Counted from the stretch's first letter, positions 3,313 through 59,472 are shown. The stretch: DNA of 64,000 nucleotides from Eledone cirrhosa (GCA_964016885.1 OZ024743.1:341930001-341994000), one strand, 5' to 3'. The notes: generated by a model from the sequence alone, not told the origin. Translations and numbers: made by a program.

Positions 3313-4850
3313 ACGCACTATCTTCATCTTAAAGACCCACACTCCCCCCGGCCTGAACTCCCCACCCTTATCCCTTTAGCGTTCGACCGCCCCCCTCCCC
3401 CCACACTTATCCCCCACTAACACCACTAACACACCCCTCCTTTTCACCGCCCACCCCACACTAACAATACTAACACCTCCACTCCACCCCTCATCTGACC
3501 ACCCTTCCCCAACTAACATACTAACATCCCTTCCCTCCCCTCTTCTCCTCCTCCCCCCTCCTTATCACACGCACACACGCACCCACTTACACCACCCAAC
3601 CCACACGCAACTAACATCACTAACACCCCCAACCCCACGCTCACGTACCCACACACCCTCGTACACCACCAACTCTACACACCCTACCACCACTAACCCC
3701 CACTCACACCTGCATTCCACCCCTCCCCACCGCCCGTATACTAACACCCACTAACACCTCTTCACCAAACTACACACACACCAGTACACCACACTCCCTC
3801 CATAGAACCACACACACCATTCTCTCCCCGCTCCACACTCACTCATCCCACTAACACCCCTACTAATACACACACACCCACACACACCCACACCCTCCTC
3901 ACTCCAACTCTCACACCTACCCATCCTCGCCTCCCTATCATTCCGCCGACTGCTGCTATGCCCTTCCGACCACCTCTCAGCACAAACTGACCACAGCACT
4001 CCCACTGCTGACCACTTCCTGTTTCGCGCGCACCCCACATCTCTCCTCTTCCGACCACCGCTTCTTGGATTACCCACACGCGAAATTCACTTCTAAACAA
4101 ATCTCCAAACATCCGTGGAAATTACCAACTTTTCAACCATCCTCTTACACCATCACCTACATAACTCCCCCCCCCCCAAACAATGTTTTTTATCCACACG
4201 CCACCCACACCCACAACACGCTTAAACCACACACAGGTGCTTCCCACCACATATTTACACCCTCAACCTCCTGATTCCTCTCCCCCCACCCCCTATCCAC
4301 ACACGCACAGACACTCCGACCCCCCCCCACACACACACACACACCTTCCTGAACATGCAACCCCGTTCTTCCCCCAACCCTCACTTTCACATACACACAC
4401 ACACGCACACCTAACCACACACACCACCTTCAGCCCTCCCCGCTCGGACACCCCGTCTCCCTCTCCCCACTCCACCCGCCACCACCCCTACTCACCCCAC
4501 ACCCTTCCACCACCTGTTTACCCCCCTTTTAATTTCAGTTTATTTTGATCATGCCTTTATTTTCAAATTTTCTCCTTCCTTGTATTTTGATCATGCTTTA
4601 TTTTTATTTATTATATTTTTTGTCTTTATTTGTTAATTTTTCATTCGCACCGTTTCCTTTCGCTATATGTCTCTCCACCACTCCCCTACACACCTTTTGA
4701 ACTCTGTTCCCACACACTTCTCACCTGAAGAAGGGCTTATGTCCGAAACGTCGTTCCCCACCTACCCCCCACTCTCCTGAGCGTGAATTTAATAAACATT
4801 TATTGTACTGCCTCTCTGTTCTGTCCCTGTTCAATTTTTCATTATATATA
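3313..4850 (+). mobile_element. 5'-truncated Penelope-like element 3' end (last codons of GIY-YIG domain, long C/A-rich UTR, HHR, AATAAA)
   Basis: 3313-3360 reads [15 protein letters not shown], matching the I..L.T..P.GLN C-terminus of PLE endonucleases. HHR core at 4725-4752, AATAAA at 4791, flanked by (TA)n. Confidence 0.6.
4722..4755 (+). ncRNA. Minimal hammerhead ribozyme motif (helix I degenerate)
   Basis: CTGAAGA-A-GGGC-TTAT-GTCC-GAAA-CG-TC. Same type as 54185-54220. Confidence 0.6.
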
Positions 4851-4902
4851 TATAGTATAAAGAAAACGAAAAATCAGTGATGCATCTGGACTTAATTTAT
4901 TG

Positions 4903-4993
4903 CGTGTTACAATTGTTTCGCCGGCAGGTAGCGCGAGACATGGTCCTTGTATGGATTTGGCTGATTCTACTGCTGCAGGTTCTTTCAGACACG
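4903..4993 (-). ncRNA. HHR-like motif in PLE1 3' pLTR (second copy at 10476-10566)
   Basis: CGTGT-CTGAAAGA-(long imperfect helix II)-GAAA-CAATTG-TA-ACACG. Helix I is 5 bp, helix III is palindromic, and the core has one extra nucleotide. Confidence 0.6.
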
Positions 4994-7095
4994 GGTATTT
5001 CGTGCGGAGCAAATTTTATCACTGGGGTGTTATCATCAAAATACACCCTAAAGAACCCTACTTCCACTCTTGTCATGCCATTGGGTGTTTTTACCCCACG
5101 TCATCACAGGTTCTGGTCAATATTTACTGCCACACGCGTCATCACCCATTTTCCGTCCGATACATTTCAATGGAGTCATGCTGGGTTCAGTATCTCACAC
5201 GTCTGTTCACACTTCAGAGTAAGCACCCACACATACGAATATACACACGCACATACAGACACATGCAGATACAGACACGTACGCCTACATGCGCAGACAC
5301 ACACACAACCACATACATATATGTATATATACAGACACACTCTCTCCCTCTTTCCATGGACAGAGTCACACCCACTTGTAGATAAATATCGCCACAAGAC
5401 TTATAACGGCTGCATAATTCAGGTCATGTATCCGGTGAGATAAGGATGGCCTACTCAAACATACACATATATACATACATACGCGCGCACACATACATAC
5501 GCACAACCTTATATACATTTATATATATATATATATAAATATATATATATACATATATATATATATACACTCATACACACACATATATACAGACACACAT
5601 ACATACACATACATACATAAACACACACATATGCATATATATATATATATATATATATACATACATATGCATATATATATATATACTCACACATGCCCAC
5701 ACATAATACAAAATACACATACGTACACAAAATTATATACACACGTACATACACACACACACATATATATATATATATATATATATATATACACAAAAAA
5801 CAACAACCTAATATGCATACGCAGAGCCACATATATACATATATATATACATACGCATATGCAGACATATATACATCTACATATGCATACGCACACATGC
5901 TCCTACATGCATACACATGCACATATGCATATTTGCCTACACACACATGTGATTCCACATATACATATATAAAGAAAACCGTAAGTTAAAAATCAAAAAA
6001 TATATTATAGAATAAAAAAACACAATATACCATAAAATAACGGTAAAATATCATAACCTAAAATATAAAATATAAGCTATAAACTATTAGTATATTATAC
6101 AATATGATATATATATATATATATATATATATATATATATATATATATATATATATATATATATATATATATATGTCCCCATATATATATATATACATAC
6201 ACACACACACATGTACACAGATTCATACATACACGGATATATACAAAGGATATGTGATAAAGTAATACAAAAAGAATAATAGTAATAATAAAAAAAACAT
6301 ATATACTCCAAATATAATCATCCGTACACATTCCTGTGAGATGCACGTAAACACATACATGTATGCACAGATACACATACACACATATAGAGGCCCACAT
6401 ATGCATAGACCCACACCCACACACGTATATATATATATATATATATATATATATATATATATATATATATATATATATATATATATATATATATACATAT
6501 ACATATATATACACACTTACTCACCCACACACACGCACGTACTCATACGTGGCTAAACGTACATACGCACGCATATATAGACATACATACATATATATAT
6601 ATTCATATATACACACACATATATATATACACACATACACACACATTCCGCCACATATGTACATACATGCACATGTCTGCACATACGCACCCATGCCCAT
6701 ATACACAATCCCACACACACCCACGTATATATATATATATATATATATATATATATATATATATATACATCTACACACACACATACATATACCTACGCAC
6801 AGGTTCACACATAAAAATACGCGAATATAAACACAATATGATAATAAAATAATAAAATAAAATAGATAAATAAATTTACAATATTTTAGTGTACATTAAA
6901 ATCTGTATGTAATTGCATAAATAGGTACAAGAAAGAAAGCGGTAAAATAAAAAAAAACGGGTAAAATAAAGAAATGTGGGTGAGGTACAGGAGAAGGTGC
7001 GTGTATCCATGTGATATACTACACGCAGGTAGTATGAGGTGCAAACTTGTGTCCGTATATAGAACAGGTAACAGTAACAGAACAATAATAGAACA

Positions 7096-57348: not shown

Positions 57349-57397
57349 GTTTCAGAAGATCCCGTTAAGGGTGAAAGCAGCGATTCTTTGCTTAAAC
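57349..57397 (+). ncRNA. HHR-like motif (U4A) in a ~120-bp insert between two (TA)n tracts
   Basis: GTTT-CAGAAGA-TCCC-GTTAA-GGGT-GAAA-GCA..TGC-TT-AAAC. Confidence 0.6.
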
Positions 57398-57499
57398 TTT
57401 AATCTGTTATTTTAATATATATATATATATATATATATATATATATATATATATATATATATATATATATATATATATATATATATATATATAAATATA

Positions 57500-59472
57500 T
57501 AACGAAGGAAATGTGGTAAGGAACCAGGTGGACCATAACACACCAAAGTACTCAATACTTGGGGTAGTAGAGTGGGTAATAGGAACCAGTAAGACCCCGA
57601 CAGCTGAGCTCAAGCCGTTTCGACTGCTAATTCTGGACTAAATGAAAATTTATCCTGGTATTTAAATAGCCGATCTTCTCAAGGGGTAATTCCATATATG
57701 GTCAAAGTGATTGTCAAAAATCAGTAGTAATTCTGTGGTTGCAAATTAGTAGGGGAGATGGTGGCTAAACCTGCCAGTAGGAGAAATAGGGGAGGGGTGG
57801 AGTAGACCCAATCAAGCGTTGGTAGTGCCAGCTACAGCTGGGCATGAGGTCAAAGAAGATACAGGGGAGGGGGAGGGGGAGGAAGTCGGAACGGTAGGTA
57901 GAACAATGGGGGGTAGAAATATATAGGAAAGAAAAAATACTGAGAGTGAAGAAAAGCAAATAAGTGTAAAGAAAAAAGTAAAGTAAATTAAATTCTACGA
58001 CCTAGGTCTCAGGCTATTGTTAGGCAACAACATCACCTATGATCTCACTTGGAGATTACTGTCCAGAGCCAATTCTTACACGGGAGGACGCCGTCCGTGC
58101 AATTTATGCTCGGAGGAAACTTTACAAATGCTGTTTTCGACGGACCAACTCCTAAACAAGAAAGTTGAACTGGTCACTGCATGTAAACATAGATTGCGTA
58201 GGACTTACCTCGCCCTCAAACCCCATAATGACCCGGGGGGGGGGGGGGGTAGACTAGGGCTATAACACCCCACTTGCCGATTTTGCAATGGGTAACCCCT
58301 GCTTGCCAAGGAAGACGTAAGATCTTCTTTGTATTCTTTTATCGCTTCCTTTATTTCCTTCCCCCCTCTCTCCTTAGTCCTTCTACCCCAGCTCTTCTCC
58401 TTTGTCGGCGTCTTTTCTCGCCCACCCTAGGCTGCCCTTTGGCCCCATGTAGCCTTAGTACCCCCACCACCCCCTCCCCTAGTCTATGATAGATTTTGCG
58501 GACTCCGCCCTTTATAGCAGTTGGCTTAGGCCCCGGATACTTGCCCCCTTTTTCCCACCGCTCCCACTATTCTCTGTGCCCTCTATATTTCTTAGTGGCA
58601 CTTATGCCTTATTTTTTCGTTTCAGTATTTCTTGCTTCGCTTTTCTTCTGGGCGGGGTGGATTCTGAATTTATTTATCCGTATTCTACCTTTATTTCGTA
58701 CGAACTTTCATGTAGCTTGTTTTAGATCTTTTAGAGTTAGCATTAGTATATATTTTTCTCGGGACTCGGAATTATTATCTCGTACAAGTTTACTTTGCTG
58801 CACTGGGTCGTTGCTGGCCCGTGATGGAAACCTTTATTGTTTATTTCGTGGTAGTCTCTTTAGTATTTTGGCCCCTTTTGTTGACCCGTCACCGTATCAT
58901 TTACGTACTTATACCTCTTAAAAGGGTCCTTGCCTATACCGTCCCACCTAGTTCTTTTACTTATTTCGTTATTTCTTTATTTCTTTCTTTCTTTACTTCT
59001 TTCTTTCTTTATTTATTTTATTCTAGCCTAACAATAGCCTGAGACCTAGGTCGTAGAATTTAATTTACTTTATTTTTTTCTTTACACTTATTTGCTTTTC
59101 TTCACTCTCAGTATTTTTTCTTTCCTATATATTTCTACCCCCCATTGTTCTACCTACCGTTCCGACTTCCTCCCCCTCCCCCTCCCCTGTATCTTCTTTG
59201 ACCTCATGCCCAGCTGTAGCTGGCACTACCAACGCTTGATTGGGTCTACTCCACCCCTCCCCTCTTTCTCCTACTGGCAGGTTTAGCCACCATCTCCCCT
59301 ACTAATTTGCAACCACAGAATTACTACTGATTTTTGACAATCACTTTGACCATATATGGAATTACCCCTTGAGAAGATCGGCTATTTAAATACCAGGATA
59401 AATGTTCATTTAGTCCAGAATTAGCCGTCGAAACGGCTTGAGCTCAGCTGTCGGGGTCTTACTGGTTCCTAT
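57500..59472 (+). mobile_element. 5'-truncated Neptune-type PLE (PLE3) with inverted 5' pLTR
   Basis: 58025-58250 encodes ITYDLTWRLLSRANSYTGGRRPCNLCSEE...LLNKKVELVTACKH. 57580-58025 is the reverse complement of 59025-59472. (TA)n flanks. Confidence 0.88.
59364..59457 (+). ncRNA. Type I HHR with U3-A8 core (copy at 57594-57687, minus)
   Basis: ACCCC-TTGAGAA-GATCGGCTA...TAGCCGTC-GAAA-CGGCT-TGAGCTC-AGCTG-TC-GGGGT. Confidence 0.82.

Follow-up and report, generated by a model that had tools for sequence, protein, structure and literature searches.

Type I hammerhead ribozymes (HHRs) are known in animals from two kinds of mobile element, the Penelope-like elements (PLEs), where they lie in pseudo-long terminal repeats (pLTRs) (PMC4209133), and the non-LTR retrozymes (PMC7229834; 10.64898/2026.07.22.740005). 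Among the PLEs, the Hydra clade has been defined by a DKT motif, an RWK-like motif, a CxCX5C linker, CxxC and CxH motifs around the C-terminal endonuclease (EN), canonical HHRs and insertion into (TA)n; one member, Hydra-1_Obim, is already listed for Octopus bimaculoides (PMC8557442). In the Poseidon PLE of Anolis, the 'tail' marks two internal start sites of the reverse transcriptase (RT) (PMC11167929). Here we describe the HHRs of a 64,000-nt stretch of the Eledone cirrhosa genome (GCA_964016885.1 OZ024743.1:341930001-341994000; hereafter the window, whose coordinates are used throughout). Type I HHRs were found 12–220 nt inside the 3′ ends of PLE families and of non-coding retrozyme-like units, and on sequence grounds both kinds of element have probably been put into (TA)n by a Penelope-type GIY-YIG endonuclease and RT.

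A first-pass annotation of the window had listed about 25 HHR motifs of about 15 sequence types. At each of its 28 coordinates, one strand carries a motif resembling a type I hammerhead, and 15 is a fair count of the types, the motif at 40552 being a relative of those at 11444 and 11933. A strict type I descriptor (core CUGANGA or UUGANAA, GAAA, helix I of at least 4 bp, helix II of at least 4 bp, helix III, UH) gave 11 matches in the window, all among the 28, whereas 100 dinucleotide shuffles (1-kb blocks) averaged 0.13 matches. These 11 have the full type I core (C3U4G5A6N7G8A9/G12A13A14/A15.1-U16.1/H17) and three helices in type I order. The remaining 17 sites were classed by eye. Six have an intact core and a helix defect (40552, 41959, 42282, 48970, 50283 and 57594), another five (11444, 11933, 16670, 26062 and 52295) are decayed and have a base exchanged in the core, three carry a family-wide change of U4 (U4C at 54775 and 55923, U4A at 57349), two (4903 and 10476) belong to a family with an additional base following A6 throughout, and at site 4722 helix I has just 2 bp. 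Most non-strict sites are decayed copies of canonical families, and the families F2, F13 and F14 (numbered F1 to F15 along the window) depart from the canonical core family-wide. Helix III is often self-complementary, as had been claimed, with perfect palindromes in 9 of the 15 window types (by eye).

To sample the wider genome, 79 10-kb tiles were placed blindly at round coordinates of the 3.0-Gb assembly, small unplaced contigs being left out. In the tiles (790 kb) the strict descriptor matched 69 times, in 44 clusters; the matched motifs fall into 23 sequence types, 12 of them with a perfectly palindromic helix III; five shuffles gave 0–3 matches. The population is therefore large and diverse genome-wide, as the first-pass annotation had proposed. 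Strict density is ∼87 per Mb, or about one motif per 11 kb, and the weighted genome estimate is 2.6 × 10^5 strict motifs (bootstrap 95% 1.8–3.5 × 10^5). When decayed and variant homologous copies are included there are 135 in 790 kb, about one per 6 kb or ∼5 × 10^5 genome-wide. The proposed density of one HHR per 2.5 kb stands as a local figure that includes decayed copies and does not hold for the genome. At 172 strict motifs per Mb the window has about twice the genome average, and it is not a special locus. Strict motifs are denser on the four giant contigs, with 46 in 420 kb (42 tiles) against 23 in 370 kb (37 tiles) elsewhere.

Could the motifs be chance matches in AT-rich, inverted-repeat-rich DNA? 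When one core mismatch was allowed and helix I was reduced to at least 3 bp, 20 matches were found in the window and 3–11 in shuffles; with such a background, relaxed calls are weak by themselves and too noisy for counting. Moreover, Rfam matched none of the window's motifs to a hammerhead family (whole window at E ≤ 1; 41900–46400 at E ≤ 10), its only matches in the window being AT-hairpin miRNA noise. For the strict set, however, chance is already refuted by the counts over shuffles in both window and tiles, by the strand-specific (TA)n adjacency described below and by the specificity of the core. The last was measured by holding the helix rules fixed and varying the core in the window and the 79 tiles together (854 kb): the 3-8 pairing was C3-G8 in 59 matches and U3-A8 in 21, the other 14 pairings gave 0–3 matches each, and a single substitution at another core position gave 0–7. 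We give chance practically no weight. Descriptors for scrambled hammerheads (SGC, GCS and CSG) gave no match in the window and near-background numbers in the tiles, where type SGC (strand order S-G-C) matched three times against three and five times in shuffles, under a descriptor that is perhaps too strict.

Helix covariation within families, another check named in the first-pass annotation, was found in two families. Twelve F9-like copies, collected by BLAST, pair in 92.6% of cells, with two-sided changes in 12 cells; none of 500 shuffles reached its pairing or covariation score, and 38 of 500 reached its number of covarying pairs. Eight F3-like copies show two-sided changes at 6 of 10 pairs, including the 3-8 pair, and again no shuffle out of 500 reached the scores. 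The switch between C3-G8 and U3-A8 lies inside this one homologous superfamily. These compensatory core and helix changes imply selection on the fold.

The elements that carry the motifs were identified from the window and from genome searches with 11 families, each of which gave 162–2,927 first-look candidates, of which 40 were scored and 15–25 loci fetched; 16 long copies were extended. Ends or pLTRs of coding PLEs account for 9 of the 15 types and 15 of the 28 sites, seven types through longer genomic copies and two as pLTRs within the window. The earlier description of mostly non-coding, non-autonomous elements is therefore not upheld, and the proposed link to Penelope elements and retrozymes is. 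The other six types are retrozyme-like units. The two pLTR cases are F2 and F5, whose HHRs lie in repeats around RT and GIY-YIG frames. F2 (4849–10746, minus strand) is a decayed PLE with pLTRs at 4849–5172 and 10422–10746, HHRs at 4903–4993 and 10476–10566, an RT piece at 10360–9266 and an EN piece at 8052–7507. F5 (17251–25150, minus strand) has pLTRs and an inverted 5′ arm, with RT at 22062–20728, EN at 20771–19734 (two frames) and strict HHRs at 17298–17343 (−), 22375–22420 (−) and 24973–25018 (+).

The other seven coding families are present in the window as 3′ ends or stubs. F1 (3313–4845, +) is a 5′-truncated 3′ end between (TA)n tracts, with a Neptune-like CxxC and GIY-YIG and an HHR at 4722–4754 (helix I of 2 bp, palindromic ACGU). 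F8 (42785–43230, −) is a fold-back 3′ stub of Neptune/Nematis type with a strict HHR at 42995–43039. F9 (43587–44451, +) has a strict HHR at 44253–44313 and a decayed inverted arm at 43587–43769. F12 is represented by two separate 3′ stubs of a Neptune-like PLE (52207–54308, both strands), with HHRs at 52295–52328 (−, decayed) and 54185–54220 (+, strict minimal, ACGU). F13 (54737–56200, both strands) is a two-armed 3′ end with U4C HHRs at 54775–54821 (−) and 55923–55969 (+). F14 (57334–57415, +) is a short 3′ stub of a very abundant PLE, with a U4A HHR at 57349–57397 and an EN frame upstream in longer copies. F15 (57502–59470, both strands) is a two-armed 3′ end with an EN fragment at 58017–58247 and U3-A8 HHRs at 57594–57687 (−) and 59364–59457 (+, strict).

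Same-strand EN or RT frames were found upstream of the HHR in fetched loci of F15 (12/25), F13 (4/25), F9 (2/20), F8 (4/20), F14 (6/20, about four at a shared distance), F12 (3/20) and F1 (1/15). Continuity from frame to HHR was checked directly for F1, where one locus (L240), 96–98% identical to the window, has a continuous GIY-YIG frame to the HHR, and for F12, where the three longest of 20 copies have a GIY-YIG frame 450–510 nt upstream. For F8, F9, F13, F14 and F15 continuity follows from the upstream length that copies share, as in F15, with EN ∼1.2 kb upstream in its 12 loci, and F8, where two loci (L251 and L252) carry an RT-EN frame ∼350–400 nt upstream. The 40 scored F15 3′ ends are ∼100% identical and one copy (L257) has an RT-EN frame open for ∼690 aa; the family looks very young.

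The open reading frames (ORFs) of F2 and F5 in the window contain DKT, CxCx5C, CxxC and CxH, and RWR was seen in F2 only; the F15 frame has the same motifs. The CX2-5CxxC linker, the Neptune mark, is absent from the F2 and F5 window ORFs, where the motif search finds CxCx5C. Therefore, the RT/GIY-YIG of the window, previously called Neptune-type, bears the marks of the Hydra clade. The ENs of F9, F13 and F14 resemble Hydra-type ones at 37–53% identity. We thus assign F2, F5 and F15 to the Hydra clade by motif signature and F9, F13 and F14 by similarity; all six insert into (TA)n and have the HHR near the 3′ end. F8 has DKS and a Cx4CxxC linker, and F1 and F12 show only a CxxC-type EN; these three appear Neptune- or Nematis-like, two clades that share the linker and are not separated by these motifs. 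The best named RT matches of the window PLE are from Argonauta, at 45%. Pfam missed both PLE frames of the window, and no host gene was found among the window ORFs of at least 120 aa.

Three of the coding families have atypical cores that are fixed even though the families spread. The F2 core is CUGA-A-A-GA, with the extra base (A6a) in 13/13 copies compared; F13 has U4C in all 20 copies displayed of 25 fetched; and F14, which outnumbers every other window family in the tiles (22 copies in 14/79), has U4A plus a U-U at the base of helix II, identical in 20/20 top copies. A6a, U4C, U3-A8 and U10.1-U11.1 are described as natural hammerhead variants, the first two of low reported activity; a literature search aimed at U4A did not find that variant. 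It may be asked, then, whether the HHRs, at least in coding PLEs, are largely passengers, kept for their fold or for protein binding while cleavage is weak or dispensable. Apart from these cores, such a role would be in keeping with the unchanged insertion by PAc, the one purified PLE protein (from Anolis), when its HHR is mutated (PMC11167929), and with the spread of Naiads, which are reported to lack canonical HHRs (PMC8557442). Against it, the catalytic core is strictly held across families, the 3-8 pair covaries, and the PAc HHR cleaves with its protein present (PMC11167929). We consider a passenger role improbable, while noting that F14, F13 and F2 are natural experiments on the need for a PLE hammerhead.

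The six non-coding types (F3, F4, F6, F7, F10 and F11) have units of ∼315–1313 bp whose longest ATG frames are 39–75 aa (with a relative, L036, standing for F3). F3 (∼315-bp unit, 11309–12142, both strands) has a direct and an inverted arm, with decayed HHRs at 11933–11973 (+, U4C) and 11444–11484 (−, G8A); its commonest family sequence has a canonical core (9/20 identical), and an old relative with a U3-A8 core lies at 40232–40666 (+; HHR 40552–40596, helix II decayed). The two-armed F4 (∼487-bp unit, 15935–16938, both strands) has HHRs at 16014–16094 (−, strict) and 16670–16751 (+, decayed). F6 (635-bp unit, partial tandem, 25170–26247, −) has HHRs at 25427–25509 (strict, with a long helix III hairpin) and 26062–26143 (A6U decay). 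F7 (∼320-bp unit) forms a tandem with an inverted arm (41846–42704, both strands; HHRs 41959–42002 and 42282–42325, −) and a two-armed insertion (45783–46416, both strands; strict HHR 46269–46312, +). F10 (1313-bp unit, 48911–51431, −) is a partial tandem with an inverted arm and HHRs at 48970–49043 and 50283–50356, which have a helix I mismatch that is absent from tile copies. F11 (51600–51823, +) is a stub of a 592-bp unit between (TA)n tracts with a strict U3-A8 HHR at 51668–51757.

Unit periods are 301–319 bp for F3 (with the relative at 40552), 471–496 for F4 (25 loci), 305–322 for F7 and 592–595 for F11. The status of F6, F10 and F11 is taken from the window and the tiles; F6 has one further tile copy. 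Upstream PLE matches were found in one of 20 F3, one of 25 F4 (beyond a (TA)n tract) and one of 20 F7 loci. Each tandem unit has one type I HHR, and full multimers are present at loci L041, L032 and L036. In the F11 insertion at L041, the direct arm of 2.8 units and the inverted arm of 1.3 units are 100% identical throughout, and 97% identical to L032, which is best explained by one circular or multimeric template. A search of sequencing runs with F11 listed no RNA data set carrying it, an outcome that counts neither for nor against its expression; contigs from three runs (two of them with 2 contigs each) spanned the stretch and were silent on expression. The L036 multimer (L036:8434–10000, 311-bp period) is homologous to F3 and has a different hammerhead. 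Families absent from the window were also seen, namely a frequent one with a CUAG helix III (seven copies in six tiles) and others among loci L024, L033, L042, L046, L269, L274 and L297.

We noted that both kinds of element have features of their insertions in common. Of 65 tile motifs with full flanks, 50 have (TA)5 within 250 nt downstream and 19 have it upstream, against 16% of random positions for the downstream side, and the proposed (TA)n adjacency is thereby confirmed. All 15 F1 loci end at the same site, with (TA)5 90 nt past the HHR in 14. Beyond the HHR, the 3′ end falls at one of about two constant positions in most families: +12/+92 nt for F15, +72/+182 for F4, +36/+205 for F13, +45/+138 for F9, +22/+112 for F14 and +48/+132 for F2. 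We read these pairs as the PLE 'tail'. At 8 of the 10 ends for which read-through copies reveal what the element itself contains, TA microhomology of at least 3 nt (3–8 nt, by eye) is present, compared with 15% expected (p about 1e-5); for this count F8 +0 and F9 +93 were dropped as internal TA tracts, F1 and F12 were left out as having no read-through copy, and F7 was scored as a miss. The tandem plus inverted layout of the non-coding units is the same as that of the PLEs. An inverted arm adjoins 32–60% of loci for the non-coding units (8/20, 8/25 and 12/20), the Hydra-like families (9/25, 13/25, 10/20 and 9/20) and F8, and none of the 15 F1 or 20 F12 loci.

These features can be accommodated in a five-step cycle. 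Tandem copies would be transcribed by read-through. HHR cleavage, often as dimers through the palindromic helix III, is predicted to give unit-length RNA, which may circularise. The EN would nick (TA)n, and downstream of the HHR the RT would start at one of about two internal UAU/AUAU sites, presumably paired with the target. Copying beyond one unit on circular or multimeric RNA could then produce the pLTRs and tandems, and priming at a second nick the inverted arm. Finally, most copies would abort early and leave HHR-bearing stubs, which would explain how motifs on the order of 10^5, as estimated from the tiles, gather in the genome.

The non-coding units might instead never have been RNA circles, being truncated pLTR derivatives, DNA-level tandem duplications or linear multimeric transcripts that are not cleaved. 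Local tandem amplification from PLE ends has been proposed by Li et al. (10.64898/2026.07.22.740005), PAc takes unprocessed RNA in vitro (PMC11167929), and identical units would likewise be expected if a homogeneous array were transcribed into linear RNA. Slippage does not, however, account for dispersed copies whose ends are fixed at (TA)n, nor for inverted arms that exceed one unit, as at L041; these need reverse transcription. The compensatory core and helix changes also speak for selection on the fold, and the related retrozymes of coral, mussel and axolotl are reported to form circles. An origin without circles is unlikely, albeit a slightly stronger contender than a passenger role for the HHRs, and we continue to favour copying from HHR-processed RNA.

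Which enzyme would move the non-coding units is a separate question. The first-pass annotation had attributed nearly all the motifs to ribozyme-bearing elements that are non-autonomous and owe their movement to a Neptune-type RT/GIY-YIG of the window. Six types are indeed non-coding with fixed periods, and Neptune-like families (F1, F12 and perhaps F8) do occur in the genome. However, most types are ends of coding PLEs, both window PLE ORFs are Hydra-type and split into pieces, and the Neptune-like F1 and F12 have none of the inverted arms seen in the non-coding units. That attribution is very improbable, and mobilisation by the window's own ORFs finds no sequence link between the units and PLE ends to rest on. 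As judged by the distribution of inverted arms, the partners would be Hydra-type or F8-type enzymes.

Several observations weigh against the cycle proposed above. A comparison of seven non-coding units with 11 PLE end segments gave simple-repeat matches only, apart from a 27-nt hammerhead stretch (E=0.008). For F6 and for F10 the period comes from a single locus, the window copy. The rows of both covariation alignments are related, which inflates such tests, and two F3-like rows are misaligned at the 3′ side. Folding z-scores of monomers were uninformative, 14/16 lying above −2 and two below. Besides inserting with mutant ribozymes, PAc starts at a position lacking homology with its target (PMC11167929), and of nine Xenopus retrozyme dimers one is reported to have been cleaved in vitro (10.64898/2026.07.22.740005). 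The three fixed atypical cores belong here as well. Even so, insertion of both kinds of element by Penelope-type enzymes is the explanation in which we have most confidence, and the occurrence together in one genome of coding and non-coding families that are young and near-identical allows both the mover of animal retrozymes and the need for a PLE hammerhead to be tested.

Other features of the window include two tandem, decayed non-LTR retrotransposons (27529–34849 and 36577–39276, both minus strand) with RT and a C-terminal RHD/PD-(D/E)xK-type nuclease region beside (TTA)n tracts, which we take to be R4/Dong-like. An RT fragment of another long interspersed element, presumably RTE-like, lies at 1752–2957 (+), and a zf-RVT fragment at 35537–36208 (+). 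A dispersed repeat of 120–200 bp without a strict HHR, possibly a short interspersed element (SINE), has at least six copies (7092–7212, 12476–12681, 26494–26690, 60555–60737, 61080–61291 and 62256–62417). Directly after a (TA)n tract, a near-perfect 160-bp palindrome at 44571–44731 is possibly another fold-back stub. Elsewhere in the genome, there are at least five hemocyanin gene copies of seven functional units each, in two clusters (C1:173.7–173.9 Mb and C26:21.9–22.0 Mb); hemocyanin of seven units is of the octopod type. A hemocyanin unit of this genome scores 650–659 bits on the best single solved units (6R83, 4YD9 and 1JS8, from squid and octopus) and 460–507 on those that follow, in line with the cephalopod host proposed in the first-pass annotation, and probably an octopod.

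Both element classes were known before. New within the literature searched are the scale of the load, the presence of a PLE-type insertion signature on the non-coding units, the microhomology of element ends with TA, and a U4A core that has become fixed. That literature, which excluded most subscription journals, contained no paper counting hammerheads in an octopus genome. For the giant squid, 235 Rfam hammerhead matches are given (2020 genome), and the main text of the 2026 curated repeat annotation of Octopus vulgaris, with its 893 recently active unclassified SINE families, does not contain 'ribozyme' or 'hammerhead'. Reported loads elsewhere are 126,247 in axolotl (∼4.5 per Mb), more than 6,000 in 16 families in coral and ∼5,000 in mussel. 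The pDo500 satellite of crickets was considered as a rival record and rejected, as it is described as low-copy, with no number given. Putting these observations together, we suggest tentatively, as a combination that may well not hold in full, that octopod genomes are more densely loaded with self-cleaving ribozymes than any animal genome described so far (3–5 × 10^5 motifs in dozens of families missed by Rfam); that Hydra-clade enzymes, through pairing of nicked (TA)n with UA-rich sites inside the template, copy both their own RNA and circular retrozyme RNAs unrelated to it; that some unclassified octopus SINEs may be retrozymes; and that intronic copies could cut pre-mRNAs or yield abundant circular RNAs.

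Compared with the pLTR hammerheads of metazoan PLEs (PMC4209133), those of Eledone are alike in occurring in pLTRs and as dispersed singles, with opposite-strand pairs 100–700 bp apart, and in having a short helix I, a long helix II, a palindromic helix III, the U3-A8 variant and many families per genome. They differ in the long insertions that extend helix II or III of several of them, and in number: 2,000–9,000 are given for the genomes in that study (Xenopus ∼9,000, coelacanth ∼4,000, and Schistosoma 2,000 plus 1,300 minimal, with thousands of canonical ones besides), against our estimate of ∼2.6 × 10^5 strict motifs, which was obtained with another descriptor. The density is ∼20-fold that of axolotl, again with different descriptors behind the two figures. 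The Hydra clade as described (PMC8557442) shares DKT, the RWK-like motif, CxCX5C, CxxC, CxH, the HHR and (TA)n with the elements found here. In contrast, at least six Hydra-type families lie in one 64-kb window, some 3′ untranslated regions are 1.0–1.5 kb, tails are 80–170 nt rather than 30–40, and atypical cores are fixed in three families.

Like metazoan non-LTR retrozymes (PMC7229834; 10.64898/2026.07.22.740005), the non-coding units are below 50% GC, form tandems with one type I HHR each and occur alongside PLEs. Unlike them, the units reach 1313 bp, where 170–400 nt is typical and 51–972 was found by Li et al. (10.64898/2026.07.22.740005). They are mostly dispersed insertions of 1–3 units, whose inverted arms and tails in (TA)n are of the PLE type, and no pLTR homology was found among the seven units and 11 PLE end segments compared, as opposed to 21/57 Xenopus families in the same study. 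With PAc of Anolis Poseidon (PMC11167929), the Eledone elements share a preference for about two ends downstream of the HHR, an optional tail, an AT-rich target, and apparent cutting and extension of both strands. The difference lies at the start site, which for PAc is not homologous to the target, whereas 8 of the 10 ends scored here share 3–8 nt with (TA)n.

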